A DNA stretch of 64,000 nucleotides from Escherichia coli. Its GTDB lineage: Bacteria; Pseudomonadota; Gammaproteobacteria; Enterobacterales; Enterobacteriaceae. Numbering within the stretch: position 1 is the stretch's first letter; each line of letters starts with the position of its first letter. The stretch lies in assembly GCF_029227855.1 (NCBI RefSeq), contig NZ_CP074356.1. One strand, written 5' to 3'. The notes beneath the pieces were generated by a model. That model was not told the DNA's origin. It saw only the letters and a list, made by a program, of their open reading frames with translations, and did no database searches. The translations under genes were made by a program, and so were the position numbers. Shown here piece by piece: positions 14,467 through 64,000 of the stretch.

Positions 14467-15013
14467 ATCCCTCCTGTCGCGAAAAATGGCCTGCGTTATT
14501 GCCAGACGTAATAAAACTTTTGATTAACGTTTCTCGTACTGGTAGCACCCTCATGTACTTTTCTTTTTTACGAAAAATCAAAAGAGCTAACAAAGGTCAT
14601 AATTCGCATGAATCATTAATTATTTGTTATTTTCAACATTATTTTTACATTAAGCAGAGATGAATTGCAGTGAAATTCGACTTAACTTTTATGAAATGCA
14701 TTTACTCATGGCTAAAGCCACGTCACAAAAATGCAAATTAGAAGTTGATCACAATTATCTCAATACATCAAATCAAGTTAATTTTAAAAATTTAACATTC
14801 ATGACATCAGTTGACATAACACACTGAATTAAAATGAGAATTTGAAAACACACTTTAAACAATCATTTCCCGAAAGACATTTTGAAAATAGATCAATTGC
14901 AACATTACGGTCAGATAAAGACACTCCTGTGATATTAAACCTGTGCCGTTATGAACGGCCATAAATACGACGTGTGTAACTTATTTTACTCTCTGTCTTA
15001 CAAAGGATTACCC

Positions 15014-15463
15014 ATGAAGAAAGCAACACTTGTGATTGGCGTTATTGGCGCGGACTGCCATGCAGTAGGCAATAAAGTTCTGGACCGCGTTTTTAGCAAC
15101 CATGGCTTCAGAGTCATTAATCTGGGCGTAATGGTCAGCCAGGACGAATATATTGATGCTGCCATTGAAACTGGTGCTGACGCGATTGTCGTCTCCTCTA
15201 TCTATGGGCATGGCGATATCGACTGTCTGGACATGCGCGAACGCTGCATCGAGCGTGGACTGGGGGACATCCTGCTCTATGTGGGCGGTAACCTGGTGGT
15301 CGGAAAACATGACTTCGCTGACGTGGAAACCAAATTCAAAGAGATGGGATTTGATCGCGTCTTTGCCCCAAGTCATGACTTAGAAGATGTTTGTCAGCTG
15401 ATGGCCCACGATATCAACCAACGTCATGACGTTGATACTCGTATTCTTGAAGAGGCAATCTGA
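15014..15463 (+). CDS. glmS: Glutamate mutase sigma (S) subunit, B12-binding
   Basis: [21 protein letters not shown]: the DxHxxG cobalamin-binding motif of methylaspartate mutase S; AGGA RBS 7 nt upstream; start chosen at internal ATG of the track ORF. Symbol follows clostridial glutamate mutase usage, not glucosamine-6-P synthase. Confidence 0.85.
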
Positions 15464-16851: not shown

Positions 16852-16869
16852 CAATTAAGGCTGCAATCA

Positions 16870-19556: not shown

Positions 19557-19559
19557 CAA

Positions 19560-20930
19560 ATGGCTCGTTCTTTTAAAGTCTTATCGCCAACGGCAATCCT
19601 CGGGTATGGATTCCCGGAAGAGAGCTTCCGCAAAGCGATGGCAGAATCGCCCGATCTGATCGCCGTTGATGCAGGCTCTTCCGATCCTGGCCCCCACTAC
19701 CTCGGGGCGGGCAAACCGTTTACCGATCGCGCAGGGGTCAAGCGCGATCTGCGCTATATGATCACCGCAGGCGTGCAAAATAATATACCGGTGGTGATCG
19801 GAACGGCCGGCGGTTCTGGTGCCGCTCCACACCTGGAGTGGTGCCGAGAAATAATTCATGAGATTGCCCGGGAAGAGCACCTCTCGTTCTCGATGGCGTT
19901 GATCCCGGCAGACGTTGACAAAGCCATCGTCCACCAGGCGCTGGATAACGGCAAAATCACGGCGCTGGAGTTTGTCCCGCCGTTAACCCACGACGCGATT
20001 GACGAAAGTACGTATATCGTTGCGCAAATGGGCATCGAACCCTTCCAGCGGGCGCTGAAAGAAGGCGCGCAAGTGGTGCCGGGCGGGCGCGCTTACGACC
20101 CGGCCTGCTTTGCTGCGCTTCCGATCATGCAAGGCTTTGATGAAGGTCTGGCGCTTCATTGTGGGAAAATCCTTGAATGCGCGGCAATCGCCGCAACGCC
20201 CGGCTCAGGCTCTGACTGTGCGATGGGCATCATTGATGACAACGGCTTTACGCTGAAGACATTTAATCCGAAGCGTAAATTTACCGAAACGTCAGCAGCT
20301 GCACACACACTGTATGAGAAATCCGATCCCTACTTCCTGCCTGGACCTGGCGGCGTGTTGAACCTGAAAGGCTGCACATTTAAAGCGGTCAATGACAGCG
20401 AAGTGTACGTCAGCGGTTCTAAGCATGAAGAAACGCCGTATTCCCTGAAACTGGAAGGTGCGCGACGGGTGGGCTTCCGCTGTCTGACCATCGCAGGAAC
20501 GCGCGACCCGATCATGATCGCCGGGATCGATAAAATCATCGATGAAGTCAAAACCAGCGTTTCGCGTAACCTGTCGCTCGACGATGACAGCATTCACATC
20601 AATTTCCACCTGTACGGCAAAAACGGGGTGATGGGCGACCATGAACCGATGCAAACTGCCGGGCATGAGCTGGGGATTGTCCTAGATGTAGTTGCGCCGA
20701 CCCAGGAAATTGCCAACAGCGTTTGCTCGCTGGTGCGCTCTACTATGCTGCACTACGGCTATGAAAACCGCATCGCTACCGCAGGCAACCTGGCGTTCCC
20801 GTTCTCCCCTTCTGATATCCAGGGCGGGCCGGTATACGAATTTTCCATATATCACCTGATTGAAGCCAACGACGCTCTGCGTTTTGATTTCCATATTGAA
20901 CAGGTGACGCCAGAAGGAGTTCAGGCATGA
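19560..20930 (+). CDS. Conserved protein of unknown function (possibly DUF1446/AtuA-like)
   Basis: 456 aa, starts 4 nt after mal; family assignment is from memory of N-terminal pattern only. Confidence 0.5.
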   Translation: MARSFKVLSPTAILGYGFPEESFRKAMAESPDLIAVDAGSSDPGPHYLGAGKPFTDRAGVKRDLRYMITAGVQNNIPVVIGTAGGSGAAPHLEWCREIIHEIAREEHLSFSMALIPADVDKAIVHQALDNGKITALEFVPPLTHDAIDESTYIVAQMGIEPFQRALKEGAQVVPGGRAYDPACFAALPIMQGFDEGLALHCGKILECAAIAATPGSGSDCAMGIIDDNGFTLKTFNPKRKFTETSAAAHTLYEKSDPYFLPGPGGVLNLKGCTFKAVNDSEVYVSGSKHEETPYSLKLEGARRVGFRCLTIAGTRDPIMIAGIDKIIDEVKTSVSRNLSLDDDSIHINFHLYGKNGVMGDHEPMQTAGHELGIVLDVVAPTQEIANSVCSLVRSTMLHYGYENRIATAGNLAFPFSPSDIQGGPVYEFSIYHLIEANDALRFDFHIEQVTPEGVQA

Positions 20931-21244
20931 AACAGTCAATTGTCTCACTGGCGCAAGTCATTCGTTCGAAAAATGCCGGACCTTACGAACTGGTTTTAGA
21001 TATTTTATTTAAAACGAAAGAAAACTATGAGCGAGTTAAATCATCAGGGCAATTAACCCCAGAACTGATTGCGCGCTTATATCATGTTGAACCTGACTTT
21101 ATTCACCGTATTGTCTGGTTTGATCCTTCTAACGCAGTAAAAATCGTCATGCCACGAGATATTATCTCCGGGAATGTAGGTGACAATGATGTCTATGGTG
21201 CACAGCAACATGCACCTTTATTAAATATGAGTTTCGATTTGTAA
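20927..21244 (+). CDS. Small conserved protein of unknown function (possibly DUF4387-like partner)
   Basis: 105 aa, ATGA overlap with the preceding gene. Confidence 0.5.
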   Translation: MKQSIVSLAQVIRSKNAGPYELVLDILFKTKENYERVKSSGQLTPELIARLYHVEPDFIHRIVWFDPSNAVKIVMPRDIISGNVGDNDVYGAQQHAPLLNMSFDL

Positions 21245-21327
21245 AAATCCGAATACTTTTAGCCAACTGACATCCCGTCACTTATTGCAGTTCAACACTT
21301 CAGCTATTTGTAAGGTTGTAATAGCAG

Positions 21328-21359
21328 GTAGATGCCTGAATCTCTATTCAGGCATCTAC
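21328..21359 (+). terminator. Perfect 14 bp inverted repeat; candidate terminator or operator between operon and transporter gene
   Basis: GTAGATGCCTGAAT-ctct-ATTCAGGCATCTAC followed by T-rich ttctcctgattctgattt. Confidence 0.55.
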
Positions 21360-21404
21360 TTCTCCTGATTCTGATTTATCGCCGTGCACCTGATGGAGGA
21401 AAAA

Positions 21405-22685
21405 ATGAAGAAAATAAGTTTAACCACGATGATTCTTTTGGCGCTGGTACTTGGAATGATTATCGGCGTAGTGCTCAATAACACTGCTTCACCGGAAACC
21501 GCAAAACTCTATGCGCAAGAAATATCGATATTCACGACGATTTTCTTACGACTGATAAAAATGATTATCGCTCCGTTAGTGGTCTCTACCCTGGTGGTAG
21601 GTATAGCTAAAATGGGCGATGCCAAAGCCCTTGGTCGTATTTTTTCTAAAACACTCTTTTTATTTATTTGCGCCTCATTGCTGTCAATTGCCTTAGGCTT
21701 GATAACAGTAAATTTCTTCATGCCAGGCACAGGAATTAATTTTGTTGCACACGGAGCCGAAACCACCGGAGTGGTCGCGTCAGAACCCTTTACGCTAAAA
21801 GTATTTATTTCGCATGCTTTCCCCACCAGCATTGTCGATGCCATGGCGCACAATGAAATTTTGCAAATCGTGGTGTTCTCAATTTTCCTCGGCTGTAGCC
21901 TGACGGCGATTGGCGAGAAAGGCAGCGCCATCGTTCACGCCTTAGATTCGCTGGCACATGCCATGTTAAAGCTCACTGGCTACGTCATGCTCTTCGCTCC
22001 CCTGACCGTATTCGCTGCTATTTCAGCATTGATTGCTGAACGAGGACTGGCAGTTATGGTGAGCGCCGGGATCTTTATGGGTGAATTTTATTTCACCATG
22101 TTATTACTTTGGGTGCTGCTTATCGGTCTGGCCATCGTTTATGTTGGCCCCTGCATCAGACGCCTGACCCGCGCCCTTTCGGAACCCGCCCTGCTGGCAT
22201 TTACCACATCCAGTTCTGAAGCGGCTTTTCCGGGAACGCTTGAAAAACTGGAGCAATTTGGCGTTTCCCCAAAAATTGCCAGTTTTGTCTTACCCATTGG
22301 CTACTCATTTAATCTCGTTGGATCAATGGCCTACTGCTCCTTCGCCACAGTTTTCATCGCCCAGGCCTGCAATATCCATTTATCCATCGGTGAGCAAATC
22401 ACCATGCTGTTGATCCTGATGTTGACCTCGAAAGGAATGGCTGGCGTACCACGCGCCTCAATGGTGGTTATCGCCGCCACGCTCAACCAGTTCAATATTC
22501 CGGAAGCGGGGCTGATCTTGCTGATGGGCGTTGATCCGTTCCTTGATATGGGGCGTTCAGCGACAAACGTCATGAGCAACGCAATGGGCGCTGCGATGGT
22601 GAGTCGGTGGGAAGGCGAACATTTCGGCGAGGGCTGTCGGGGTAAAGCATTAAAACCCAATGAATCGAACGTTGCTCTGCCCTGA
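21405..22685 (+). CDS. Dicarboxylate/amino acid:cation symporter (GltP/DctA family), probable glutamate uptake
   Basis: About 426 aa polytopic protein; GGAGGA RBS 5 nt upstream of ATG 21405 (track ORF starts at an upstream GTG). Confidence 0.8.
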   Translation: MKKISLTTMILLALVLGMIIGVVLNNTASPETAKLYAQEISIFTTIFLRLIKMIIAPLVVSTLVVGIAKMGDAKALGRIFSKTLFLFICASLLSIALGLITVNFFMPGTGINFVAHGAETTGVVASEPFTLKVFISHAFPTSIVDAMAHNEILQIVVFSIFLGCSLTAIGEKGSAIVHALDSLAHAMLKLTGYVMLFAPLTVFAAISALIAERGLAVMVSAGIFMGEFYFTMLLLWVLLIGLAIVYVGPCIRRLTRALSEPALLAFTTSSSEAAFPGTLEKLEQFGVSPKIASFVLPIGYSFNLVGSMAYCSFATVFIAQACNIHLSIGEQITMLLILMLTSKGMAGVPRASMVVIAATLNQFNIPEAGLILLMGVDPFLDMGRSATNVMSNAMGAAMVSRWEGEHFGEGCRGKALKPNESNVALP

Positions 22686-22792
22686 GGGGGATCTTAAGCA
22701 ATCAGAAGCCAATGACTACGCATTTTTATAAGCCGGATCATGAAGTTAGACGGCAATTAAGTAAAACTAACGTTTAAGGTGAAAAGTGAAAT

Positions 22793-24445
22793 ATGTCCAA
22801 ACCATTTATCTGGCAAGAACCGTTTCTACAAAATAAAGACGGTACAGAATATACATTAATTAGCGATCAACATATTACAGTAACGGAATTAGACGGCGAA
22901 GAAGTAATAAAAATCGCTCCTGAAGCATTAACGCTGCTTGCCCGGCAGGCATTTTATGAAGCCTCTTTTTTCTTACGTTCCGCTCATTTGCAACAGGTCG
23001 CCAGCATTCTTAACGATCCGCAGGCCAGTAGTAATGATAAATACGTTGCGTTGCAGTTATTACGTAATGCTGAAGTCTCAGCAAAAGGGGTATTACCCAA
23101 CTGTCAGGATACCGGCACCGCAACTATTGTTGCCAGTAAAGGGCAACAGATATGGACGGGAGGTAACGACGCTGAAGCCTTAAGCAAAGGCATTTACACC
23201 ACTTTTCAGGAAAATAATCTGCGCTTTTCACAAAATGCGCCACTGGATATGTTTACCGAAGTCAATACGCAAACCAATCTCCCGGCGCAGATTGATATCA
23301 GCGCCGTCGCTGGTGATGAGTACCATTTTCTCTGTATTAATAAAGGGGGCGGCTCTGCCAATAAAGCCGCGCTTTATCAGGAAACCAAATCCCTATTGCA
23401 ACCAGAAAAACTGACCGCATTTTTAATCGAAAAAATGAAATCGCTGGGCACCGCTGCCTGCCCGCCTTACCACATCGCCTTTGTCGTCGGAGGACTTTCA
23501 GCCGATCAAACCTTAAAAGTTGCCAAGCTGGCCTCAACGAAATATTACGACAATTTGCCCACCAGCGGAAACGAGCAAGGACAAGCATTCCGTGATATTG
23601 AGCTGGAAAAAGTATTGCTCGAGGCCAGTCAGCAATTTGGTATTGGTGCGCAATTTGGGGGTAAATATTTCGCTCATGATATTCGCGTCATTCGTCTGCC
23701 GCGTCACGGTGGCTCTTGCCCGATAGCTATGGCGCTCTCCTGTTCTGCGGATCGCAATATCAAAGCAAAAATTAACAAGCACGGTATCTGGCTGGAAAAA
23801 CTCGAACACAATCCGGGGCAATATATTCCAGCCTCACTGCGGGAAGAAAATCACGCGCAACATGTACAGCTGGATCTAAACCGTCCGTTGCGTGACGTGA
23901 TGCAGGATCTCGCCAGATTACCGGTAGGCACCCGCGTGTCGTTAAGTGGTCCCATCGTAGTGGCGCGCGATATCGCCCACGCCAAAATAAAAGCGCGGCT
24001 GGATAGCGGCGAACCGATGCCGGATTACCTGAAGCATCATATTGTCTATTACGCTGGCCCGGCGAAAACACCGGAGAACATGGCCTGCGGTTCACTGGGT
24101 CCAACCACGGGCGGTCGAATGGACGGTTATGTCGATACCTTCCAGGCGGTTGGCGGCAGTCTGGTGATGTTATCGAAAGGTCACCGCAGCCAGCAGGTCA
24201 CCGATGCCTGTCACAAACATGGCGGCTTCAATCTGGGAAGTATTGGCGGTGCAGCTGCGTTACTGGCGCAAGAATATGTCAAAAGTCTGCGTTGCCTGGA
24301 ATACCCGGAGCTGGGTATGGAAGCGGTGTGGATGATGGAAGTGGAAAATCTGCCCGCATTCATCCTGGTAGATGATAAAGGCAATAATTTCTTTAGTCAG
24401 TTTGAGCAGCAACACCGCTGCGCCAGTTGCCCTGCGGGACATTAA
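22793..24445 (+). CDS. fumD: Class I (Fe-S) fumarate hydratase family enzyme, probable mesaconase
   Basis: 550 aa; N-terminus closely parallels FumA ([31 protein letters not shown]); linkage to glutamate mutase/methylaspartase as described for the E. coli O157:H7 mesaconase FumD. Confidence 0.8.
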
Positions 24446-24454
24446 GGAAAATGA

Positions 24455-25057
24455 ATGGAAGCGCGAATTTCAACTGAACGGCATGTGCAGCGCCAGCAGA
24501 AATTGAAGGAACAGGTCGATACGCGCATCGCGGCGGCGATAGAGAAAAAAGGGATTTTGATTGTTTTCACCGGCAATGGCAAAGGGAAATCCACTGCCGC
24601 GTTTGGTACTGTGACGCGCGCGGTGGGTCATGGCAAAACGGTGGGGGTTGCGCAGTACATCAAGGGGCAATGGGACAACGGCGAATACAACCTTCTCCAG
24701 CCGCTGGGGGTTGAGTTTCATATTATGGGAACCGGTTTTACCTGGGAGACACAGAACCGGCAAGCGGATATCGACGCGGCGAAAGAGGTCTGGTCGGAAA
24801 GCAAACGGATGCTGGCTGACAAGCGTTACGACTTAGTGGTGCTTGATGAGCTGACCTATATGCTGGCTTACCATTATCTGGATACCGAAGAAGTGATCGC
24901 TTCTCTGCAAAACCGCCCGGCACAACAAAGTGTCATTGTCACCGGACGCGGTTGCCACAGTCAGATATTAAAAATGGCGGATACGGTCAGCGAAATCCGC
25001 CCCGTCAAACATGCTTTTGATAACGGCATTCAGGCGCAGCCGGGTATCGACTGGTAA
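24455..25057 (+). CDS. ATP:cob(I)alamin adenosyltransferase (CobA/BtuR paralog)
   Basis: 200 aa; GILIVFTGNGKGKSTAAFG P-loop and strong collinearity with E. coli BtuR. Confidence 0.85.
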   Translation: MEARISTERHVQRQQKLKEQVDTRIAAAIEKKGILIVFTGNGKGKSTAAFGTVTRAVGHGKTVGVAQYIKGQWDNGEYNLLQPLGVEFHIMGTGFTWETQNRQADIDAAKEVWSESKRMLADKRYDLVVLDELTYMLAYHYLDTEEVIASLQNRPAQQSVIVTGRGCHSQILKMADTVSEIRPVKHAFDNGIQAQPGIDW

Positions 25058-25060
25058 TAA

Positions 25061-25093
25061 CTGCGCCTGGCATCCCGCCAGGCGCAGGTTTTA
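25061..25093. terminator. Bidirectional terminator hairpin between convergent cobA-like and LysR genes
   Basis: CTGCGCCTGGC-atccc-GCCAGGCGCAG then gtttta. Confidence 0.6.
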
Positions 25094-25996
25094 CATCTCC
25101 TGCGGTACAACCGATTTCGCCAGCAACCATTCACGAAATTGCTGCAAGTGCGGTGAGTCAGACTTCTCTTCCTGCCACGTCATAATAAAACGATTACCGG
25201 TACGAATAGGCACATCACAGGGGATCACCATATCGCCACTATCCAAATCATGTTGAATAGCGAAACGTGGTAACAGCGCCACGCCGAGATTAGAGCGCAC
25301 GGCGGCAATCAGCATTGAAAGCAAATCGAAACGTGGTCCGTTGTTGACCAGTGGACTGCTAACGCCAGATAAAGCAAACCACTCTTCCCAGCCAGTAATA
25401 CGGGTGCTTTGATGCAGAAGTGGTAACTCAGTAAGCAGTTCTGCCACTGACAGTTTTTGATCGGACATTGCAAGCAAACTGCCGCTGCATACCGGCAAAA
25501 TCTCCTCATCAAAGAGATATTCTACTTCCGCCCAGGGCGCGCAAAAATTTTCGCGCATAATGACAGCATCGTACTCCCGATTAAGAAAATCGCCGTTATT
25601 AGCTAAAGAGTGAATATTAACAATAATATCGGGATGTAACTTTGTGAATTCATGTAAATTTGGGATTAACCAGTGGGTACTAAACGTAGGATTCACGGCA
25701 AGTTCAATAACCTGAACCGTAGGCTGCCAGGTCATAATAGTATTGGTATCGCGTTCCAGCTTATTTAATGTTTCTTTTACTATCCCCAGGTAATACTTCC
25801 CTGCATCATTAAGAAAAATACGTTTTTTAGAGTGTGAAAATAACGGAGTATGTAAAAATTCCTCCAGCGCACTCACTTGTCTGAATACAGCACTTTGGGT
25901 TAACGCTAACTCCTCTGCCGCTCTGGTATAACTTTCATAACGTGCGACGACCTCAAAAGTCACCAGCAGCTCCGTTTTAGGTATTTTTCCTCGCAT
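25091..25996 (-). CDS. LysR-family transcriptional regulator
   Basis: N-terminal HTH (TRAAEELALTQSAVFRQVSALE) and LysR substrate-binding domain; start at ATG 25996 with RBS; divergent from the RtcB-like gene. Confidence 0.85.
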   Translation of the reverse strand: MRGKIPKTELLVTFEVVARYESYTRAAEELALTQSAVFRQVSALEEFLHTPLFSHSKKRIFLNDAGKYYLGIVKETLNKLERDTNTIMTWQPTVQVIELAVNPTFSTHWLIPNLHEFTKLHPDIIVNIHSLANNGDFLNREYDAVIMRENFCAPWAEVEYLFDEEILPVCSGSLLAMSDQKLSVAELLTELPLLHQSTRITGWEEWFALSGVSSPLVNNGPRFDLLSMLIAAVRSNLGVALLPRFAIQHDLDSGDMVIPCDVPIRTGNRFIMTWQEEKSDSPHLQQFREWLLAKSVVPQEM

Positions 25997-26585
25997 AATT
26001 CCGTCCGTGAAAAAATAACAATTCAAAAATTATTTTATAAAAAACAGTAGCACTAATGAATATCATAATTCAAATAAACAAACCAGTCAGCTATATGTCT
26101 AACCAGGAAAATAAAGTGACAATAATCCTAAAACAGGAATTTCACCTCAGTTATCCGCATGCAATACTTTAAAGCTATTATTGCAAGAATATTATTCATA
26201 TACATGAATATACTCTAAATAAGTCAAGTTGCAGGAAGGGAACAAATAATGAATTTCCAGAAGCTTACATAAGTAAGTGACCTGAGTGAGCGAACATCGA
26301 TGCAGCACATGCAACTTGAATTATGACAAGTATACAATGATAAATTTATATACCCTATGTTATATATTATCTATGTCCGGTTAAATTGAATGAGTCATGG
26401 CCTTAAAAGACTTCACAAAAGATAATTCCTCTTTAACAATAAGCCAGATTTACCACTTGTAAAACTTGCTATCGCCACATACACTACGCGCGTTTTCTTT
26501 CCCTTTTGCTGGCTGCTGACCGGAAAGACAAAATTACCCTCGCAATACAGGGGGTTGTTTAACGTCTATATTTCAGGACAGCGTT

Positions 26586-27983
26586 ATGCATCATCTTTCA
26601 AGGCTTGATAAAGCCTTTCTGCGCAAAGGGATCCAACTTTCCCGCGCCAACAATATTGTTTCATTATCTCGTCCATCAGGTGCCAGTGCCCGCGTACTGC
26701 TGCCGGACGAACTGCCGCTGGAAGAAAAAGCAGTAACACAACTGCTTGATTTTGCAGAAGTGAAGCTACCAGACCACCCAGGTTATGTGCGCCAGACGTG
26801 CGCGACGCCAGATTTTCATCCCGGCAATGGCGTCCCCGTTGGCGCGGTGGTGGCCTCAACGCCGGATTTAGTCATTCCCGCCGCCATCGGCACCGATATT
26901 TCTTGTGGCATGCGGCTGCTGACGACCGGATTAACACTTGAGCAAGCCGAAGCGCATAAAGACATCATCGCTCAGCGGTTAACGCAAGTGCTGCTGCAAA
27001 ATGAGCGCGATGTTCCGTTATCCGCACAGGCGTTCACTGCGCTTTTTGATGGCGGACCGGCAGATTGCGTGTCGACCTTGCCATCAGCAGGTCTCTGGAC
27101 ACGCACGAATATCCCCCGAATGGTACAAGAGATTGACTGCTGCATTGGGCTTAACGAGCATAACAGTCATTCGCGTTATGCCCCACCCGCCCTGCTGGCA
27201 ACGGACCGCGCATTACTCCGCGATCCTTGTCTGGGTACGCCGGGTTCAGGTAATCATTTTATTGAACTTCAGGTCGTTGATAGCGTGGTTGATCGCCATG
27301 TAGCCTGGCAACAAGGGCTGAAAACAGGCGATATTGTGGTGATGATCCACAGTGGATCGCGAGATGTTGGCTTTTACGTCGGAAGACGCTGGATGGATCG
27401 CGCCCGTGCTGAATGGCCCACCGGACATAAACATCCACAAAGCGGGTTATATGGTCTGGCAGGCGGACTGGCGGAGGAATATCTACAAGCGATAGGAATG
27501 GCTGCGCGTTACGCGTGGTTAAATCGCGTCACAATTGCCGAAATGGTGCGCGTATGTCTCGCCAATCTCTTTCATCAGGACAATTCGCATCTGGTGGTGG
27601 ATGTGCCGCATAACATCATCCTTCGCGAGCATGAAATGAATATTCATCGCAAAGGTGCAACACCGGCACGAGTGGGCGATCTGGCATTAATCCCCGGTTC
27701 AATGGGCGATTATTCGTGGCTTGCAGTCGGTTGCGGCAACCCGGAGTGGCTGTGGTCATGCAGTCACGGAGCAGGACGCAGCCAGCGTCGACAGGCCATG
27801 CGCTCAAGCGCGACTGAAGAGTCAACGCTGCCGTGGCAATGCGTCACATTGCGTGAAGAACGACGTCTTGAAGAAGCGCCAGCGGCTTATAAAGATATTG
27901 GTCCGGTTATCGAAGCCCAACAAGAAGCCGGATTAATTCAACCAGCGGTCAGATTTCGACCGTGGTTAACGTTTAAGGGGTAA
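26586..27983 (+). CDS. RtcB-family RNA ligase paralog (stand-alone)
   Basis: 465 aa with RtcB signature blocks DISCGMRL, GSGNHFIE, MIHSGSRDVG, HRKGATPARVGDLALIPGSMG, CSHGAGR, APAAYKDIGPV; all metal/GMP-binding Cys/His positions appear conserved. Confidence 0.8.
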   Translation: MHHLSRLDKAFLRKGIQLSRANNIVSLSRPSGASARVLLPDELPLEEKAVTQLLDFAEVKLPDHPGYVRQTCATPDFHPGNGVPVGAVVASTPDLVIPAAIGTDISCGMRLLTTGLTLEQAEAHKDIIAQRLTQVLLQNERDVPLSAQAFTALFDGGPADCVSTLPSAGLWTRTNIPRMVQEIDCCIGLNEHNSHSRYAPPALLATDRALLRDPCLGTPGSGNHFIELQVVDSVVDRHVAWQQGLKTGDIVVMIHSGSRDVGFYVGRRWMDRARAEWPTGHKHPQSGLYGLAGGLAEEYLQAIGMAARYAWLNRVTIAEMVRVCLANLFHQDNSHLVVDVPHNIILREHEMNIHRKGATPARVGDLALIPGSMGDYSWLAVGCGNPEWLWSCSHGAGRSQRRQAMRSSATEESTLPWQCVTLREERRLEEAPAAYKDIGPVIEAQQEAGLIQPAVRFRPWLTFKG

Positions 27984-45663: not shown

Positions 45664-46230
45664 ATGTTTAAAGGACAAAAAACATTGGCCGCACTGGCCA
45701 TATCTCTGCTATTCACAGCACCTGTTTATGCGGCTGATGAAGGATCCGGTGAAATTCACTTTAAAGGTGAAGTTATTGAAGCACCGTGTGAAATACATCA
45801 GGATGATATTGATAAAGAGGTTGAACTCGGTCAGGTGACCACCAGCCACATTAATCAGTCACATCACAGCGATGCCGTTGCTGTCGACCTGCGCTTAGTC
45901 AACTGCGATTTGGAAAACTCCAACAACGGTTCCGGCGGCAAGATTTTTAAAGTTTCAGTCACCTTTGACAGCTCAGCGAAAACCACCGGCGCAGATCCGA
46001 TTCTCAACAACACCAGCACGGGTGAAGCGACCGGTGTCGGCGTGCGTTTAATGAATAAAGATCAAAGCAATATCGTTTTAGGCACCGCTACTCCAGATAT
46101 CGACCTGGCACCAACCTCCAGCGAACAAACGTTAAATTTCTTTGCGTGGATGGAACAAATTGATCAGGCTACGCCCGTAACACCAGGCGCAGTTACGGCG
46201 AATGCGACCTACGTACTGGATTATAAATAA
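45664..46230 (+). CDS. ybgD: Fimbrial major subunit-like protein (cryptic chaperone-usher fimbriae)
   Basis: 188 aa, signal peptide MFKGQKTLAALAISLLFTAPVYA, pilin-like size, C-terminal aromatic residue; RBS upstream of ATG 45664. Confidence 0.85.
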   Translation: MFKGQKTLAALAISLLFTAPVYAADEGSGEIHFKGEVIEAPCEIHQDDIDKEVELGQVTTSHINQSHHSDAVAVDLRLVNCDLENSNNGSGGKIFKVSVTFDSSAKTTGADPILNNTSTGEATGVGVRLMNKDQSNIVLGTATPDIDLAPTSSEQTLNFFAWMEQIDQATPVTPGAVTANATYVLDYK

Positions 46231-46280: not shown

Positions 46281-48740
46281 ATGGACACCGTGAATATTTA
46301 TCGACTCTCTTTTATATCCTGCCTGGTCATGGCGATACCTTCCGCATTGGCGGTCGAATTCAACCTGAATGTCCTCGATAAATCGATGCGAGATCGCATT
46401 GATATTTCATTATTAAAGGAAAAAGGGGGCATTGCTCCCGGTGAATATTTTGTTAGCGTTGCAGTAAATAACAACCAAATCAGTAACGGACAAAAGATTG
46501 ACTGGAAAAAGAACGGTGACCAAACCATTCCGTGTATTAATGATTTACTGGTAGATAAATTTGGTTTAAAACCTGAAGTTCGTCAGTCGTTACCACGGTT
46601 AAACCAGTGCGTCGATTTTAGCTCCCGGCCTGAAATTCTCTTCATTTTTGATCAGGCTAGCCAGCAACTGAATATCACTATTCCACAAGCCTGGCTGGCG
46701 TGGCACTCAGATAACTGGACTCCCCCCTCAACATGGAAAGAAGGTGTCGCCGGCGTCCTGATGGACTACAACCTGTTTGCCAGCAGCTACCGCCCACAGG
46801 ATGGTAGCAACAGCACTAACCTGAACGCCTATGGAACAGCCGGAATTAACGCGGGAGCATGGCGTTTACGCAGTGATTACCAATTGAATCAGACCGATAG
46901 CGATGATAACCATGAACAGTCAGGCGAAATATCACGCACCTATCTTTTTCGTCCATTACCGCAATTAGGTTCAAAATTAACCCTTGGTGAAACGGATTTC
47001 AGTTCCAATATTTTCGACGGCTTTTCTTATACCGGCGCGGCACTGGCAAGTGACGATCGGATGTTACCGTGGGAGCTACGCGGCTACGCCCCACAAATCA
47101 GCGGCATTGCACAAACCAACGCCACCGTCACCGTGAGTCACTCAGGGCGAGTTATTTACCAGAAAAAAGTCCCACCAGGTCCGTTTATCATTGATGACCT
47201 TAATCAGTCCGTCCAGGGTACGTTGGATGTCAAAGTGACGGAAGAAGATGGTCGGGTGAACAATTTCCAGGTTTCGGCAGCATCGACGCTCTTCCTTACG
47301 CGCCAGGGGCAGGTTCGCTATAAACTTGCTGCCGGTCAGCCGCGAACATCTATGTCTCATCAAACTGAAAATGAAACCTTTTTTAGCAATGAAGTTTCCT
47401 GGGGGATGCTGTCAAACACCTCGCTGTACGGCGGCCTGCTGATTTCGGGTGATGACTACCATTCTGCCGCAATGGGTATCGGGCAAAATATGCTGTGGCT
47501 TGGTGCGCTGTCTTTTGATGTCACCTGGGCCAGTAGTCAGTTTGATACTCAGCAGGACGAGCGGGGCTTAAGTTACCGCTTTAATTACAGCAAACAAGTG
47601 GATGCCACTAACAGCACGATTTCGCTCGCCGCTTATCGCTTCTCAGATCGTCATTTTCACAGCTACGCCAACTATCTGGATCACAAATACAACGACAACG
47701 ATGCGCAGGACGAAAAACAGACGATCAGCTTATCCGTGGGCCAACCGATTACCCCACTAAACCTCAATCTTTACGCCAACCTGCTGCATCAAACCTGGTG
47801 GAATGCAGACGCCTCCACGACCGCCAACATCACGGCGGGTTTTAATGTTGATATTGGTAACTGGAGAGATATCTCGATCTCGACGTCATTCAATACAACC
47901 CATTACGAAGATAAAGATCGCGACAATCAGATTTACCTGTCGATTTCGCTCCCCTTCGGTAATGGGGGGCGGGTCGGTTATGACATGCAAAACAGTAGTC
48001 ACAGCACCACGCACCGCATGTCGTGGAATGATACGTTAGATGAACGTAATAGCTGGGGCATGTCTACCGGACTGCAATCCGACCGTCCGGATAATGGAGC
48101 CCAGGTGAGCGGTAACTATCAGCACCTGAGTTCAGCGGGTGAGTGGGATATTTCTGGTACCTATGCCGCCAATGATTACAGTTCCGTCAGCAGCAGCTGG
48201 AGCGGTTCTTTCACAGCAACCCAATATGGTGCGGCGTTCCATCGTCGCAGCTCCACCAATGAACCACGCCTGATGGTCAGCACCGATGGCGTGGCAGATA
48301 TTCCGGTTCAGGGCAATCTCGACTACACCAACCATTTTGGCATTGCGGTGGTGCCGTTGATTTCCAGTTACCAGCCTTCCACCGTGGCGGTGAACATGAA
48401 TGATTTACCCGACGGCGTAACAGTGGCAGATAACGTTATCAAAGAAACGTGGATTGAAGGCGCGATAGGTTACAAATCGCTGGCTTCCCGTTCCGGTAAA
48501 GACGTTAACGTCATCATTCGCAACGCCAGCGGTCAGCTCCCCCCCCTCGGTGCGGATATCCGCCAGGAGGATAGCGGCATTAGCGTGGGAATGGTTGGCG
48601 AGGAAGGACACGCCTGGTTAAGTGGAGTCGCTGAAAATCAACAATTTACCGTGTTCTGGGGTGATAGCCAGCGTTGCTCGATCCATCTTCCTGAACATAT
48701 GGAAGACACCGCAAATCGCCTGATTTTACCTTGTCATTAA
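46281..48740 (+). CDS. ybgQ: Fimbrial outer-membrane usher
   Basis: About 819 aa with signal peptide MDTVNIYRLSFISCLVMAIPSALA; usher-family length and composition; start placed at internal ATG. Confidence 0.85.
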   Translation: MDTVNIYRLSFISCLVMAIPSALAVEFNLNVLDKSMRDRIDISLLKEKGGIAPGEYFVSVAVNNNQISNGQKIDWKKNGDQTIPCINDLLVDKFGLKPEVRQSLPRLNQCVDFSSRPEILFIFDQASQQLNITIPQAWLAWHSDNWTPPSTWKEGVAGVLMDYNLFASSYRPQDGSNSTNLNAYGTAGINAGAWRLRSDYQLNQTDSDDNHEQSGEISRTYLFRPLPQLGSKLTLGETDFSSNIFDGFSYTGAALASDDRMLPWELRGYAPQISGIAQTNATVTVSHSGRVIYQKKVPPGPFIIDDLNQSVQGTLDVKVTEEDGRVNNFQVSAASTLFLTRQGQVRYKLAAGQPRTSMSHQTENETFFSNEVSWGMLSNTSLYGGLLISGDDYHSAAMGIGQNMLWLGALSFDVTWASSQFDTQQDERGLSYRFNYSKQVDATNSTISLAAYRFSDRHFHSYANYLDHKYNDNDAQDEKQTISLSVGQPITPLNLNLYANLLHQTWWNADASTTANITAGFNVDIGNWRDISISTSFNTTHYEDKDRDNQIYLSISLPFGNGGRVGYDMQNSSHSTTHRMSWNDTLDERNSWGMSTGLQSDRPDNGAQVSGNYQHLSSAGEWDISGTYAANDYSSVSSSWSGSFTATQYGAAFHRRSSTNEPRLMVSTDGVADIPVQGNLDYTNHFGIAVVPLISSYQPSTVAVNMNDLPDGVTVADNVIKETWIEGAIGYKSLASRSGKDVNVIIRNASGQLPPLGADIRQEDSGISVGMVGEEGHAWLSGVAENQQFTVFWGDSQRCSIHLPEHMEDTANRLILPCH

Positions 48741-48754
48741 TTAAGGAAATGAAA

Positions 48755-49487
48755 ATGACATTTATGAAAGGACTACCCCTTTTGTTGTTGGTTGCCAGTC
48801 TGTGCAGCCACGCTGCACTACAACCCGATCGCACTCGTATTGTGTTTAACGCTAATGATAAAGCTACCAGTCTGCGCGTGGATAATCGTAGCGATAAACT
48901 CCCCTACCTCGCTTATTCCTGGCTCGAAAATGAAAAAGGGGAGAAAAGCGACGATCTTCTGGTCGCCCTGCCACCGATACAACGTCTGGAACCGAAAGCA
49001 ACAACGCAGATGCGGATAGTCAAGCAAGCCTCGACCGCGAAATTACCGGGCGATCGCGAAACGCTATTTTTCTACAATATGCGTGAAATTCCTCCCTCCC
49101 CAGAAAAAAAACAGCGGCCATGCCGTTCTGCAGGTCGCCATCCAGAGTCGTATCAAGGTGTTCTGGAGACCGTCCGCGTTACGCAAGAAAGCAGGAGAAA
49201 AAGTCGAGCTACAGTTACAAGTCAGCCAGCAGGGCAATCAACTTAACTTAAAAAACCCGACCGGCTATTACCTGACAATCGCCTACTTGGGACGAAATGA
49301 GCAAGCTGTTCTCCCGGGCTTCAAAACCGTGATGGTTGCGCCTTTTAGTACAGTAATTACAAACACCGGAAGTTATAGCGGCAGTCAGTTTTATCTCGGT
49401 TATATGGATGATTACGGCGCGTTACGCATGACGACGCTCAATTGCAACGGACATTGCCGTTTACAAGCAGTGGAGGCGAAGAAATGA
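48755..49487 (+). pseudogene. ybgP: Fimbrial periplasmic chaperone (PapD-like) disrupted by a frameshift in an A8 homopolymer
   Basis: N-terminal half (MTFMKGLPLLLLVASLCSHA...FFYNMREIPPSPEK) is in one frame and the C-terminal half (NSGHAVLQVAIQSRIKVFWRP...) in the +1 frame; the switch maps to the run of eight A at 49104-49111. Seven A would give a continuous chaperone of about 240 aa. Confidence 0.75.
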
Positions 49488-50545
49488 GTACTGGCAAAGG
49501 ATTGTTGCTCGTCATCTGTCTGTTATTTCTGCCATTGAAGTCTGCGCTAGCGCTGAACTGCTATTTTGGTACTTCCGGCGGAACGGTAGAAAAATCGGAA
49601 GCGATTCAACCCTTTGCTGTGCCAGGTAATGCCAAACCCGGCGATAAGATCTGGGAATCTGACGATATTAAAATTCCCGTCTATTGTGACAACAATACCA
49701 ACGGCAACTTTGAAAGCGAACATGTCTACGCATGGGTAAACCCCTACCCGGGGGTACAGGATCGTTATTATCAACTCGGCGTGACATACAATGGTGTCGA
49801 TTACGATGCCAGTCTGGGGAAAAGCCGCATCGACACCAACCAGTGTATCGACAGTAAGAACATTAACATTTATACCCCTGAGCAGATTATCGCGATGGGC
49901 TGGCAGAACAAAATATGCTCGGGTGACCCCGCTAATATTCACATGTCGCGAACCTTTCTTGCTCGTATGCGGTTATACGTTAAGATTCGCGAAATACCGC
50001 CGCATGATTATCAAAGTACGCTTAGCGACTACATCGTCGTGCAATTTGATGGTGCCGGTAGCGTTAACGAAGACCCTACCGCCCAAAACCTGAAATACCA
50101 TATTACTGGTCTGGAAAACATTCGTGTACTGGATTGCAGCGTCAATTTTTCTATTTCACCAGAAACACAGGTGATTGATTTTGGTAAATTTAACCTGCTG
50201 GATATTCGCCGCCACACAATGTCGAAAACATTCAGTATTAAGACGACAAAATCACAAAATGACCAGTGCACCGACGGATTTAAGGTCAGCTCTTCGTTTT
50301 ATACCGAAGAAACATTGATTGAAGAGGATAAAGCACTGCTGATTGGTAATGGACTGAAGCTACGTTTGCTGGATGAAAATTCTTCACCCTATACTTTCAA
50401 CAAATACAGCGAATATGCTGATTTCACCAGCGATATGCTGATCTACGAAAAAACCTATACGGCTGAACTTTCGTCCATTCCCGGCACCCCCATCGAAGCG
50501 GGTCCCTTCGATACAGTGGTGCTTTTTAAGATTAACTATAACTAA
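49484..50545 (+). CDS. ybgO: Fimbrial adhesin-like tip protein
   Basis: 353 aa, signal peptide [23 protein letters not shown]; last gene of the fimbrial operon; GGAGG RBS. Confidence 0.8.
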
Positions 50546-58853: not shown

Positions 58854-59359
58854 AAAACTCCTGCATGGCGCAAGTTAATCACACGCGGCCAAAGTTCGAA
58901 ATAACGCTGCTCTGAAAGCCAGGCGTCAGGATAAAACGCCATATAGTGTTTGATACGCATCAGCGGCGCAAGAAGCGGTTGCTCGCCACGGCGATAACTG
59001 TCGATAAGCGCCGCCAGCTGCTGGCGTTCTGTGGAATCAATATGTGGGCGAAAATATCCCTGAACGTGCATCAAAACGTTAGTATGATCACGCCGGTTGG
59101 CAGGGTGAGAAAGCAAAACAATTACGCGTTGGCGGTACTGGTTGTAATAGTCATCCAGATTTTGCCACTGGTGAATATCAGCCACAAACGGGCCAAGTTT
59201 GCGGTACTCGGGCTGGGAATGGGCCAGAAAGACGAGTTTATAGCGGCTGTGATAATCGTTGAGTGCCCCGCGCGTTAAGCCATGTTCTTTCAGTCGATGT
59301 AACTCATGAAGGGCGAAGATACGGATTAGGGTGCTGTCATCAAATCGTTGCTGATTCAT
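58850..59359 (-). CDS. ybgA: DUF1722-family protein co-transcribed with photolyase
   Basis: 169 aa; 4 nt overlap with the phrB start. Confidence 0.85.
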   Translation of the reverse strand: MNQQRFDDSTLIRIFALHELHRLKEHGLTRGALNDYHSRYKLVFLAHSQPEYRKLGPFVADIHQWQNLDDYYNQYRQRVIVLLSHPANRRDHTNVLMHVQGYFRPHIDSTERQQLAALIDSYRRGEQPLLAPLMRIKHYMAFYPDAWLSEQRYFELWPRVINLRHAGVL

Positions 59360-59476
59360 TACTGCTCCTGAACGGTTTACAGGAGTAAGTGTAGACGTTG
59401 GGAAATGATATTTGTGAAGTTAATCCTGTTGTAGCAGGGCAAGATTACGAAAGCCCGCTCCCCGCAAGGACTGACG

Positions 59477-60268
59477 TCAGGTAGTTTCTGTCCATGGCTG
59501 CCCTTTCCATTCAAACGTGAAATCAATAAGTTCATCAGGGACATCGCAAACAATGTGAAGACGGATTTCTTCTCTGCCGTGACTCTTTTCACTCATTGCG
59601 TAACTGCCATGCTCTGGATTATTTAATTCTTTCAGCGGAAACTTTTCCTCAAAGGCTTTATTTAGCCGCCCCTGGTTTCCTTTTACAGCGAATAAATAAT
59701 CACCGCCCTGTTTTTGTATCTTCTCTGCGATATCTTTCTGGCAACCCATCGCATCAGTTGTGATAATTTTTCCTTTAATATCCAACATGTTAAGAAGTTC
59801 AGGGATAGCTGTAATTTCATTGGATTTCTCATCCGTCCTGATCTGTCCGATGACCAGACTGTGCATTGTTGAGAACGAACTAATGACATGAATCGCTCCC
59901 CTGCGGCGACTCTAGTCATAAGAGTGCCGGAGCGTTTTTCCATCAATTGCAATGACGCCTTTATCATCTGAAGAATGGCAGTCACGCATCCAGTTAATAA
60001 AGCACTCGTGAAATTTTGCAGGACTGATACAGGATACAACTCTGGCAATGGTATCGTGAACAGGAATACCATTTTCAAAATCACCATATTGCTTCAAAAA
60101 ATCGAGATGTGTTTCCCCAAAATCCTCTATATCTTCCCAGCCTTCTGCACCAGAAATAACGGCACAAATAGTCAACAGTAGAATATCCGACAATTTATGT
60201 TCCACTTTCCAGGCTTGTCTGTAATCGGGGATAATAGAAATATGTTCCATCAATTTTTTAAGTTCCAT
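59477..60268 (-). pseudogene. H-repeat-associated (ISAs1-family) transposase interrupted by an in-frame amber codon and C-terminally truncated
   Basis: N-terminal segment [32 protein letters not shown]...[10 protein letters not shown], then TAG (complement of 59912-59914), then the same frame continues [40 protein letters not shown]...FEWKG and ends early. Both track ORFs 59912-60268 and 59477-59866 are in one frame. Confidence 0.8.
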
Positions 60269-60375
60269 TTTGTTCTCCTTAATTATGTAAGGAGTATTTG
60301 ATCATGTATAAGCAATAAAAAACAGCTTCAGGTAATGAGGAATATCTCAATTTTTAAACATAAAATGCGAATTAT

Positions 60376-60993
60376 TTAGTACAAAAAGTGTACTTCTGAT
60401 GATCTTTCCCTGTCCTTGGCACCATCATTTTTTGACGCTTCAAAAATACTACTACAAGTGAGTTTAGAAAACTCTTTTCCAGATAATTCTCCAGGTTGTA
60501 ATCCTCCGCCGCCAAAAATCCTACTCCCAGGATTTCCATACCTATTTAGAGCATATGAATAGCAATTATTTACGGCAAGATAATACGCATCTGAATTTAG
60601 TTCTCGATTGAATACTGGAGCAGGTTTATCAATTAAGCCCAGCGGATCAATAGAATAGGTTGGATGTATGGAAGCATATACATACTGATTCCACCCGCCT
60701 TCCAGCCCAATCGGATCCTGAGTGATATACCGCCCCTGCAGCGGGTCATAATAGCGGTGGCGGTTGTAATACAGGCCGGACTCCTCATCATACTGCTGCC
60801 CCGGCAGACGGATAAGCTGCTGCAGGTGCTGCGGGTTCTCTTCAGTCAGCAGGTTGTCCCATTCATCATATTCTGCGCACCATTCTGTTGCCCCGTCAGG
60901 GCTGATAAGCGTCAGCGGCAGGCCGCGATAGTCGCAGTGGTAGAGGTGGATTATTCGCAGTGATCTATATGCCAACGTCATCTTATTTTTCAT
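60376..60993 (-). CDS. Orphan Rhs C-terminal fragment (core-end homology plus distinct toxin tip)
   Basis: First about 100 aa ([82 protein letters not shown]) parallel the end of the main Rhs core at 62.0-62.3 kb; the remaining about 100 aa are unrelated to the main Rhs tip. Confidence 0.75.
60700..60970 (-). repeat. Rhs core 3'-end homology block (copy 1; partner at about 62020-62290)
   Basis: Nucleotide-level near-identity, e.g. gtgatataccgcccctgcagcgggtcataatagcggtggcggttgtaatacaggccggactcctcatcatactgctg at both loci. Confidence 0.8.
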
Positions 60994-61045
60994 CTACTCC
61001 AACGAGTAGACAAGTTTTTTATTAAACCATTTATACCTTTTACGA

Positions 61046-61549
61046 TTAAATTTTCTTATGTAATAGAGGTGAATAATCTTCCCAAAAATCCATACAAGCT
61101 TTACTTGCATAAAAGAATCCAGCGTCTGATTCATAAGACATAAACTGTGCAATAATAGATAGTTGTATATCTGAAAAATTAAAAACAAAATTCAAAAAAT
61201 CATCGTGATCCCGATACTCAGGACATAAATATTGTTGAATAAAATCGGATTCAAAAACCCAAAAATCATTCTTATTAAACAACGAGGCATAAATATACAG
61301 AGGGATGTAATAGCAGAATACTTTCTCAGGGAGGAATGTAATTCCTAACTCTAAAGCATAAGAGTCATCCTTTATTTTAAAATTGTTGGCTATTTCATTC
61401 CATTGTTTCTTTTGGAAAAAATTATATACAATATCCAGTTCCTCCAGCCCTGTAATATCATTTGAAATATGAGGTAATGGCTGGCATGGGAAATGAATCA
61501 TAAGTTCATCATAGACTGCACTCTCGTTAGAGAAAATTATTTTTTTCAT
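61046..61549 (-). CDS. Probable Rhs immunity protein (RhsI) for the main Rhs toxin tip
   Basis: 167 aa AT-rich ORF starting [12 protein letters not shown]; its ATG overlaps the Rhs stop codon (ATGA); location typical of rhsI genes. Confidence 0.65.
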
Positions 61550-64000
61550 TTTATTAAGCCACTGCAATCAGCTGCTGTTTTATATGCTTTATTCTCTTCT
61601 TCCATATGGGCCTTATCTCCACCACCAAAGCACTGATTATTAATCTGCTTTCTGACCGAAGCGCACGCCAAATTTATCTCGTACCGTCTCAATATTTCTT
61701 TTCTCAGCATCTGAGGAGCGCAAGCTCTAGACTGGTTACATAATCTGTTTTTTTCATTTTGTAAGTCACTCAGGTTCTGGGGACTACAGTTACCACCAGG
61801 ATTTACACCTGACTTATGTTCATCTGTTAATTTGTCGGCTTCTGGATTAACTTTACGGCCATATTGATCTCTGCGTTGTTGCCCACTTTGGATAACACCA
61901 CCTGATGAAAACAAACCGCAACTCATCAGTGCTACAACACTAAGAATTAACGGATTTAACCCTTGTGGGTCTATCTCTGAGATCGGATTTAACGGATACT
62001 GATAAAAATTCCATCCCCCCTTCAGTCCAATCGGATCCTGAGTGATATACCGCCCCTTCAGCGGGTCATAATAGCGGTGGCGGTTGTAATACAGGCCGGA
62101 CTCCTCATCATACTGCTGACCCGGCAGGCGGATGAGCTGCTGCAGCTGATGCGGGTTCTCTTCATTCAGCTGGTTACCCCATTCATCGTATTCTGCGTAC
62201 CACGCTGTTGTCCCTTCCGTGCTGACAAGCGCCAGCGGCAGGCCGCGATGGTCGCAGTGGTACAGGTGGATTTTTCGCGCCGGCGTGTACACCGGGTCCA
62301 TCTGGTTTTGCATCTGCTCCACCGTCAGGCCGCACGATGCCAGCCAGCGGCGGCTTTCCTCGCTCACCCGGTCAGTAAGGATTTCACTTTCCAGCCGGTC
62401 GAGCATCTGCACCAGCACCGGCGGGAACACCACTCTGCCACCGTCTTCGCCGCCGGACTGCTGAAGGGCATCCGCCAGGCTGCGGCGCTGCGTTTTCGCC
62501 AGCTCACCGGTGGCGGTTTCAACTCTGATGAGTGGCGTGAAGCTCCCCGGCTGATAAACCGTCTGGATGCGGGTTCTGTCGTTCTGTATTGTGGTCAGCC
62601 GGTCGCCGTCCCAGCCGTACCAGGTCACTTCCGGTTTCCGTGACAGCGACATCCAGCCCGTCAGGTCCCGTTCACGCCGCCATACCCGTTTTGCCACCCT
62701 GCGGCCCAGCGGGTCGTAAAGATAGCGACTTTCGACCAGCGGCTCTGCATATTGTGTCCGCGTGTAGTGCACCAGCCGGTGCCGGCTGTCGTAATGATAC
62801 CGGTGAGTCCGCTCATCATCCGTGCGGATAACCCCTTCCGGGATGAGGTCGGTTTTCTCTGTCAGCCTGCCGTGACGGTCATACCGGTAAAGATAGTGCG
62901 CGTCACGGGCGATACGGTTATCCGGCCACATGCTGAGGGTGCTGTCCGGGTGCAGCTCCGGGTCGGGCAGGCGGTTGCCTGCCGGGTCCGTGGCATACGG
63001 GATGCGGATATCCAGGTTCGCTGCCGTGGTGTGGACGCCGGTCAGCCTGCCGGTGTCGCTGTAGCTGTAACTCCGGGTCTGGCGCGGGCTGCTGATGCGG
63101 ATGAGTTCGCCGTTGTCGTTCCAGGTGTAATCGCGGTCATACTGCAGGCTGTTCAGGTGCTGGCTCTGTAACTGCCCGGCAGGGGTGTAAGCGGTGGTGA
63201 GTTCATAACGGCCGAAGCTGCGCAGCGTTTCCCGGTGCAGGCGGTCGCGGGTGAAATCCACCAGCGGTGTGTCGCCGAGTTTCATGCCTGACAGCCAGCC
63301 GCTGCCGTAGGTCAGCCATTCCACGGCGGGCAGGCTGTCCGGTATACAGCGGTTCGCCAGTCCCTGCGCGTTGTAAGCATGTCTGGTTTCATGCTGCCAG
63401 AGCAGTGCTTCCGTCTGCGGGTGATGCACCGTCTGGCGCTCACCGGTCAGGCGGCCTTTCTCATCATACCCGTAATGCACCGTCACCCGGTGGCCTTCGC
63501 TGAGATAGCTGATTTGTGTCAGCCAGCCGCGTTCGTCGTACCGCCACTGTTCTGCGGTTTCACCATTCACCGTTCGCTGTGTGATGCGGTCTGCTTCGTC
63601 ATAGTGCCAGTGGGTGACCAGCCCCTCATCCTCGCTGCGGATAAGTTTGCCGGTCAGGTCGTGGTGATAACGCTGTGTGCGGCCGTCAAAGCCGGTTTCC
63701 TGTATCAGCCGGTCGAGTACATCGTAACGGAAGGTGGTGTGGCTGCCGTTTTCACTGGTCAGGCGGATGACCCGTCCGGCAGCATCGTATTCCATACTGC
63801 GCGTCAGACCACCCTGCGTGGTACGGATGGCCTTTCCCCACGTATCGTACTGTGTCCCGTTTCTGCTGCCGTCCGGGGCAATGACGGCGGTCAGGTCACC
63901 GGCGGCGTTGTATTCATACCGCGTTTCATGGCCCTGCATGTCTTTCACCGCAATTAACTGTCCACGGCTGTCGTATGCGCGGTACTGACTCAGGCCTTCC
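61546..64000 (-). CDS. rhsC: Rhs protein, C-terminal part (YD-repeat core plus polymorphic toxin tip); 5' end beyond the window
   Basis: YD-repeat-rich translation (…RYDAAGRV…[10 protein letters not shown]…), core-terminating DPxGL motif, then a distinct C-terminal domain of about 140 aa; symbol by synteny with ybgA-phrB only. Confidence 0.8.

Follow-up and report, generated by a model that had tools for sequence, protein, structure and literature searches.

In the published PapD-subunit structures, Arg8 and Lys112 of PapD anchor the C-terminus of the subunit, while the G1 strand donates its alternating hydrophobic residues to the groove of the subunit. YbgP of E. coli is close to PapD (the periplasmic P-pilus chaperone; PDB 1pdk and 7lhg, among others) and to the other FGS-class chaperones: when its reading frame is repaired, it shares with PapD both Ig-like domains, the equivalents of Arg8 and Lys112 and the alternating hydrophobic G1 strand, and its gene likewise lies in an operon with an usher and subunits. 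Unlike PapD, the ybgP gene described here is interrupted after residue 118 and encodes only a fragment of domain 1 without the G1 strand; unlike the P pilus, the Ybg fimbriae have no established receptor or role. It has been reported that the Ybg cluster is core-associated, yet "not intact" in many strains (Wurpel et al. 2013, PMC3559732), and in the part of PMC8174762 that cites Korea et al. (2010), the operon is described as cryptic in K-12.

For the interruption itself, the closest counterparts are other frameshifted alleles of the same gene, broken at the same A7 tract. The A6 alleles of ECC-1470, STEC306-308, CE0021a, JNE170426 and UID2404240040, with which "periplasmic pilin chaperone" fragments (e.g., that of E. 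coli DEC14C) are grouped, likewise result from a single-base change, are annotated as "frameshifted" and are inherited within lineages. However, the A6 alleles lost an A and are read in the other frame (162-aa product), whereas the lineage described here gained one (A8, 163 aa) on a different haplotype.

Two further systems resemble this locus in part. In homopolymer phase variation of fimbriae and other surface structures, such as that of the C-runs of the Bordetella fim promoter and the contingency genes of Campylobacter and Neisseria, the length of the run likewise determines whether the gene is in frame. Such runs are longer, and their lengths differ between sibling cells and between close isolates, whereas the ybgP run is short (A7–A8 is short for a contingency tract), invariant in its lineage and off-length in only 0.56% of genomes. 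The "pseudo-pseudogenes" (PMC1088944) are likewise frameshifted by an additional A within an A-run, in E. coli genes that other strains have intact, but their candidates have runs of 9 A/T in which +1 restores the frame, whereas the run of ybgP is 8 and needs −1 or +2.

The ybg operon and the reading frames of ybgP

The stretch of DNA analysed as a whole (64 kb, hereafter the window) is identical to positions 3414545–3478544 of the chromosome of E. coli JNEC-KY178 (NZ_AP045174.1), a clinical STEC of O23:H24 from Japan. The gene order gltA-ybgD-ybgQ-ybgP-ybgO-abrB matches that of K-12, and abrB is followed by nei, as in K-12. Thus, ybgP (locus tag AC0J0T_RS16820) is flanked by ybgD (Fimbrial), the ybgQ usher and ybgO, which is the operon setting of the PapD-like chaperone family. 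The gene is 733 nt long here and 732 nt when intact. The coordinates of the operon are collected in Table 1.

Table 1. Features of the ybg operon in the window, with the state of each in JNEC-KY178 or the basis of its assignment
Feature	Position	Strand	State or basis
ybgD, fimbrial subunit	45664–46230	+	intact
Second lineage marker SNP, inside ybgD	45947	+	T here, C in A7 sister haplotypes
ybgQ, outer-membrane usher	46281–48740	+	intact in JNEC-KY178; match to StdB-type usher, E = 4e-189
C8 run inside ybgQ	48539–48546	+	in frame here; the operon's second hot spot for homopolymer frameshifts
ybgP, PapD-like periplasmic fimbrial chaperone	48755–49487	+	frameshifted pseudogene; RefSeq/PGAP "frameshifted" and NCBIfam/Pfam matches
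Frame-0 ORF of ybgP, the translated one	48755–49246	+	163-aa product from ATG; TAA stop at 49244–49246
Lineage marker SNP in ybgP	49010	+	A here, G in A7 relatives; Val86→Met in YbgP; perfectly linked to A8
A8 homopolymer	49104–49111	+	ancestral A7 plus one inserted A; frameshift site
Out-of-frame remainder of ybgP	49110–49487	+	Asn119 to C-terminus: G1 donor strand, Lys134 and whole PapD_C; PapD alignment and Pfam boundaries
ybgO, fimbrial protein	49484–50545	+	intact; ATG overlaps ybgP stop (ATGA); own GGAGG at 49472–49476

The A8 run, read directly from the sequence, is the only A-run of at least 8 in the window. In the A7 form, the codons of the run are GAA AAA AAC, i.e., Glu117-Lys118-Asn119 of YbgP. 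With the eighth A, the frame-0 product consists of 118 native residues (the signal peptide and most of domain 1) followed by 45 out-of-frame residues, and the rest of ybgP, as far as 49487, is carried by a +1-frame ORF (49083–49487). The frame-0 ORF matches positions ~14–124 of fimbrial-chaperone NCBIfam profiles (best E = 1.4e-32), and the +1-frame ORF matches positions ~117–240 of the same profiles (best E = 1e-21). When one A is deleted in silico, a 243-aa protein with PapD_N (22–142) and PapD_C (165–222) is obtained; tracts of A4, A7 and A10 give full-length YbgP, and those of A5, A6, A8 and A9 give truncated products. The first-pass annotation of this DNA, which had described a chaperone split between two frames at the A8 run and restorable by seven or ten A, is therefore borne out on both points. 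The gene callers start ybgP at the ATG at 48755 and leave the downstream fragment uncalled. No exact match was obtained for the truncated product when begun at other start codons (165 aa, 171 aa), nor for the 134-aa C-terminal ORF.

The frame-0 stop lies 237 nt upstream of the normal ybgP/ybgO overlap; since ribosomes now terminate there, the stop/start coupling between the two genes is lost in the A8 allele, and some polarity on ybgO is possible. It had been suggested that ybgO would depend on read-through or reinitiation, which holds only in part: the coupling is gone, but a Shine-Dalgarno sequence of its own stands 7 nt before the ATG of ybgO.

Directly 5′ of the ybgP ATG, an A-run (48751–48754) is A4 here and in the allele group of ~93% identity to the window, and A5 in the closest complete-genome relatives 2012C-4221, AF40 and NMBU-W10C18, by which the spacing from Shine-Dalgarno to ATG is altered by one base. 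This difference is a natural polymorphism, and A4 is reproduced in all contigs of the lineage. Elsewhere in the window, ~13019–27983 contains genes for methylaspartate mutase (glmS, glmL, subunit E), methylaspartate ammonia-lyase, AtuA-family and DUF4387 proteins, a dicarboxylate symporter, class I fumarate hydratase, cobO, a LysR regulator and RtcB. Most E. coli lack this block, which resembles an island for glutamate fermentation by the methylaspartate pathway. Positions 20001–45000 are covered to at least 80% in only 125 of 5,426 genomes. A T8 run (18407–18414) lies inside the methylaspartate ammonia-lyase gene (18315–19556), which is accessory DNA and annotated as intact. At ~59045–64000, there are a partial ISAs1-family transposase fragment (ybfD, interrupted by an internal stop), the C-terminal fragment of an RHS protein and a large RHS core protein that runs off the end of the window, which is a typical rearrangement hot spot.

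Parts of the chaperone lost with the frameshift

Repaired YbgP aligns end to end with PapD (E = 1.5e-48). In this alignment, Arg28 and Lys134 of YbgP correspond to Arg8 and Lys112 of PapD, and Leu125, Val127 and Ile129 correspond to Leu103, Ile105 and Leu107 of the G1 strand. The match to PF00345 (PapD_N) in repaired YbgP has an E-value of 1.2e-33, and the actual frame encodes only residues 22–118 of it; PF02753 (PapD_C) is found only in repaired YbgP and lies, in the window, in the +1 frame downstream of A8. That is to say, PapD_C, which members of the PapD-like family carry in the same polypeptide, is separated from PapD_N here. The break after residue 118 falls within PapD_N, upstream of PapD_C, in the F1-G1 loop. 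Both cleft residues and the G1 strand are present in the repaired protein, and the truncated product, which keeps the signal peptide and strands A1–F1, retains Arg28 alone of them.

Because domain 2 is missing altogether, as are the donor strand and the cleft lysine, the 163-aa YbgP should be non-functional and unable to chaperone YbgD or YbgO. The earlier statement that a broken chaperone would block fimbrial assembly is structurally well founded by the PapD alignment, from which the loss of function is predicted. The gene carries one A more than the A7 of 1,970 complete genomes and of sister haplotypes only 2–3 SNPs away. On these grounds, ybgP here can be classed as a pseudogene of the PapD-like chaperone family rather than as a functional member; the frameshift is an ordinary event of a known kind, and RefSeq already annotates it.

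Tract length in the lineage and in the species

Of the 5,426 complete E. coli genomes searched, 3,758 have a detectable ybgP, and its alleles form three groups that are ≥96%, ~93% and ~84% identical to the window. The run is interrupted (GATAAAAGC) in the K-12-type group and is A7 in all other sampled alleles. For the tract counts, queries shorter than 100 nt were used, so that the band of ≥99% identity holds exact matches only. With window-type flanks, the 5,426 genomes gave no A6, 202 A7, a single A8 (JNEC-KY178 only) and no A9; with common-allele flanks, they gave 10 A6, 1,768 A7 and no A8. Hence, the tract is off-length in 11 of the 1,981 exact-flank genomes, a tally that omits about 470 genomes with other flank variants. 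The intact YbgP proteins occur on at least 1,000 contigs (common allele) and on 189 contigs.

The exact 163-aa product, with its private Met86, is found on 8–11 contigs, which come from drafts at NCBI and from Logan assemblies of sequencing runs unrelated to one another (including SRR14933785, SRR14933781, SRR5866348, SRR10254033 and SRR18105866). The longest of these contigs is 47.6 kb, so none of them is the JNEC-KY178 chromosome. Five contigs were fetched, and all of them carry A8, C8 in ybgQ and A4 before the ybgP ATG, with 0–1 differences from the window over 5.6–10.5 kb. When contigs were sought through the identical usher protein and not through ybgP, automated grouping gave ~17 places with the intact 243-aa YbgP and ~7 with the 163-aa form. 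The A8 contigs retrieved in this way showed zero differences from the window, and the A7 contigs ERR5312261, GCA_902839575.1 and SRR28811025 differed only at 45947, 49010, sometimes 48966, and the tract. A lineage-specific AbrB variant is present on 11 contigs, and ybgP, where visible in the contigs shown, is always of the 163-aa form.

A8 is thus perfectly linked to 45947T/49010A in independent isolates of one lineage, and Val86→Met is private to that lineage and inherited along with the frameshift. On the Met86 background, the products of A4, A5, A6, A7, A9 and A10 are absent among ~15 billion proteins, and neither a Met86/A7 nor a Val86/A8 product is on record for the background of the window lineage. 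The lineage sample, found by exact-protein look-ups, is small (about 11 contigs), and some of its runs may be epidemiologically linked. No relative of the A8 lineage was found among the complete genomes: over 25 kb, none matches better than 99.4%, and those closest in ybgP (2012C-4221, ST2747) have 135 differing sites in 8.7 kb. The perfect linkage points to one recent insertion, inherited clonally and derived from A7, and not to switching.

Changes of the same tract recur elsewhere in the species. The ten A6 genomes belong to two haplotypes with 43–47 differing sites in 6 kb, and they are annotated "frameshifted" where the annotation was checked. Isolates from China, New Zealand and Thailand share one of these haplotypes without a difference over 6 kb, so that this pseudogene is inherited stably. 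Among the contigs of the wider collection, 668 carry one A6-type truncated product, and others are present on 66, 24 and 13. A8 is also found on a haplotype 97.5% identical to the window (product on 8 contigs), on the background of E. coli B (about 134 contigs with the product) and on two further natural haplotypes (ERR4221111, ERR10438258). Altogether, A8 has arisen independently on at least four backgrounds besides the window lineage, and A6 is present on at least two haplotypes, so that the A7 tract is a mild mutational hot spot.

Of the E. coli B contigs with A8 (SRR2584685, SRR6170xxx, SRR6171025), five differ from BL21-AI over 1.5 kb in the extra A alone, and a further one has one extra mismatch. 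The run numbers SRR2584685 and SRR6170xxx may belong to the long-term evolution experiment, in which mutator lines reportedly accumulate homopolymer indels. Three other truncated YbgP variants occur on a single contig each: one consistent with A5 (...SPEKQRPC...), one frameshifted a few codons upstream in a C-rich stretch (...IPPPRKKQRPC...) and one frameshifted six codons downstream of an intact A7 (...GHAVSAGRHP...). Some of these may be assembly noise.

The usher gene has a run of its own. The C8 of ybgQ is the only C/G run of at least 7 in the window, and most other ybgQ alleles interrupt it (CCCTCCCC). Among complete genomes with identical flanks, 7 of 236 have C7 and a frameshifted usher; in 2012C-4221, for example, the C7 usher is annotated "frameshifted". 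Internal stops or frameshifts of ybgQ were present in 5 of 14 other complete-genome loci whose annotation was inspected. APEC 102026, ETEC6333 and TUM14771 have ybgQ as a pseudogene by internal stop, and UID2404240040 has ybgQ broken by a separate frameshift in addition to its A6 ybgP. The ybg operon is therefore broken in many independent ways, in agreement with the report of Wurpel et al. (2013), and what is mildly new here is that its decay recurs at two homopolymer runs, the A7 of the chaperone gene and the C8 of the usher gene. In a GWAS of the STEC adhesiome, a ybgQ "frameshift" was reported at K-12 position 749,777 (PMC12547504). By coordinate conversion, this position is neither the C-run nor the A-run, and it lies near a 3-nt length difference between K-12 and other alleles.

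Explanations of the A8 allele and their meaning

The best explanation, to which a probability of about 90% is given, is a single insertion by replication slippage in the A7 run of ybgP, on which selection is weak or absent, with fixation in a shallow clone. Slippage during replication would have added one A to the tract in a recent ancestor of JNEC-KY178, and the A8 form, inherited clonally, is fixed in the lineage. With the frame shifted after Lys118, only the 163-aa protein can be made, and it is predicted to be unable to cap or stabilise the Ybg subunits by donor-strand complementation. The fimbriae would then fail to be assembled even if the operon were transcribed. Since the operon is cryptic and often broken in E. 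coli, the loss is probably neutral or slightly beneficial. Among the alternatives that had been offered for the split gene, pseudogenisation is the one that the lineage-fixed A8, the RefSeq flag and the lost domains support, and ybgP of JNEC-KY178 is a young pseudogene in an otherwise intact operon.

Slipped-strand phase variation, in which the A-run would switch the Ybg fimbriae on (A7) and off (A6/A8) reversibly and at high frequency, is very improbable. It is true that a homopolymer within the ORF sets the frame, that off-length alleles recur independently on several backgrounds and in the second run of the usher, and that A7 is kept in about two thirds of the ybgP-bearing genomes, although a synonymous interruption is possible, as K-12 shows. 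However, the tract is A8 only within the lineage, in perfect linkage with two flanking SNPs, and this fixation is the outcome that the first-pass annotation had itself named as speaking against phase variation; the A6 haplotype shared by three countries likewise argues for stable inheritance. True contingency loci show a broad mix of lengths, with the ON and OFF states both common and with variation among close isolates; here, close isolates agree and off-length tracts are rare. In addition, mismatch-repair-proficient E. coli has low indel rates at runs of A7–A8 length. Because the tract has mutated independently on several backgrounds, its mutability is elevated and reversion of A8 is mechanistically possible; a minority A7 sub-population may exist in the JNEC-KY178 culture.

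A slower form of the same idea is given an equally small chance, namely that the A7 of ybgP and the C8 of ybgQ are retained by selection as a low-rate reversible off-switch, which would make them a slow "evolutionary" contingency locus in a species proficient in mismatch repair. That A6 and A8 recur on many backgrounds is consistent with such a switch, but no revertants to an in-frame tract were seen. If it were true, lineages would repeatedly silence the Ybg fimbriae and could later re-activate them by ±1 slippage.

Slightly less probable still is recoding, by which the A8 allele, as a "pseudo-pseudogene", would still give some full-length chaperone, either by slippage during transcription or by a +1 frameshift of the ribosome. 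RNA polymerase tends to slip on runs of A, and tRNA-Lys could in principle re-pair in the +1 frame on AAA AAA A. It has been reported that an ORF disrupted at an A-run can regain its frame in the mRNA and that, in some organisms, a run of 8 A's is productive (Baranov et al. 2005, PMC1088944). However, the same paper puts the threshold for slippage selection at about 9 nt for most genomes. Restoring the frame of ybgP requires the loss of one or the gain of two nucleotides in the mRNA, or a +1 ribosomal shift, and in genome-wide data slippage at A/T runs in E. coli consists almost only of single-base insertions, with within-run deletions being rare (Traverse & Ochman 2017, PMC5574713). The commonest slip from A8 would give A9, which is still out of frame in silico. 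Moreover, the two-frame arrangement is not conserved, the single A7 ORF being the norm and A8 being confined to a few shallow lineages, and the sequence flanking the run has no stop, rare codon or Shine-Dalgarno-like stimulator. Low-level leakiness of the A8 allele is thus unlikely to matter.

The weakest reading, that the true tract is A7 and the extra A is a long-read homopolymer artefact, deserves next to no credence: single-base homopolymer indels are a typical residual error of Nanopore-based assemblies, and A8 with window-type flanks is a singleton among the complete genomes, but the A8 allele with its linked SNPs recurs in independent assemblies from at least five unrelated SRA runs and an NCBI draft, and the genome is a hybrid assembly including Illumina reads, by which the error suggested earlier is excluded. 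Hybracter includes short-read polishing. JNEC-KY178 is listed in the strain table of bioRxiv 10.64898/2025.12.25.695649, whose complete genomes were made from Illumina 2x150 and MinION V14 reads with Hybracter. Frameshifted genes are not in excess in this genome, since only 3 of ~150 genes in 150 kb of JNEC-KY178 are flagged "frameshifted" (ybgP and two ETT2 genes); all three belong to accessory systems in decay, and no housekeeping gene is among them. The two genes of the degenerate ETT2 type III secretion island, sctC and a YscQ/HrcQ-family gene, lie outside the window (NZ_AP045174.1, 1009589–1011291 and 1017079–1018066). Compared with the nearest complete genomes, the window shows several single-base indels (48751, 49104, 50572), from which an assembly error was suspected. 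This suspicion was rejected, as all three are reproduced in independent contigs of the lineage, the A4 at 48751 is common to the whole 93% allele group and the assembly is hybrid. Apparent indels at 44744 and 53487 are alignment-edge effects of fixed-length loci and are not real.

The case illustrates that independent public assemblies allow a homopolymer frameshift in a complete genome to be checked even when the reads are not at hand. Beyond its correct annotation, the frameshift of ybgP matters little. As the ybg operon decays repeatedly at the same two runs, presence/absence or GWAS analyses of ybgP and ybgQ should account for tract length. This STEC O23:H24 lineage should be scored as Ybg-negative in adhesin inventories.
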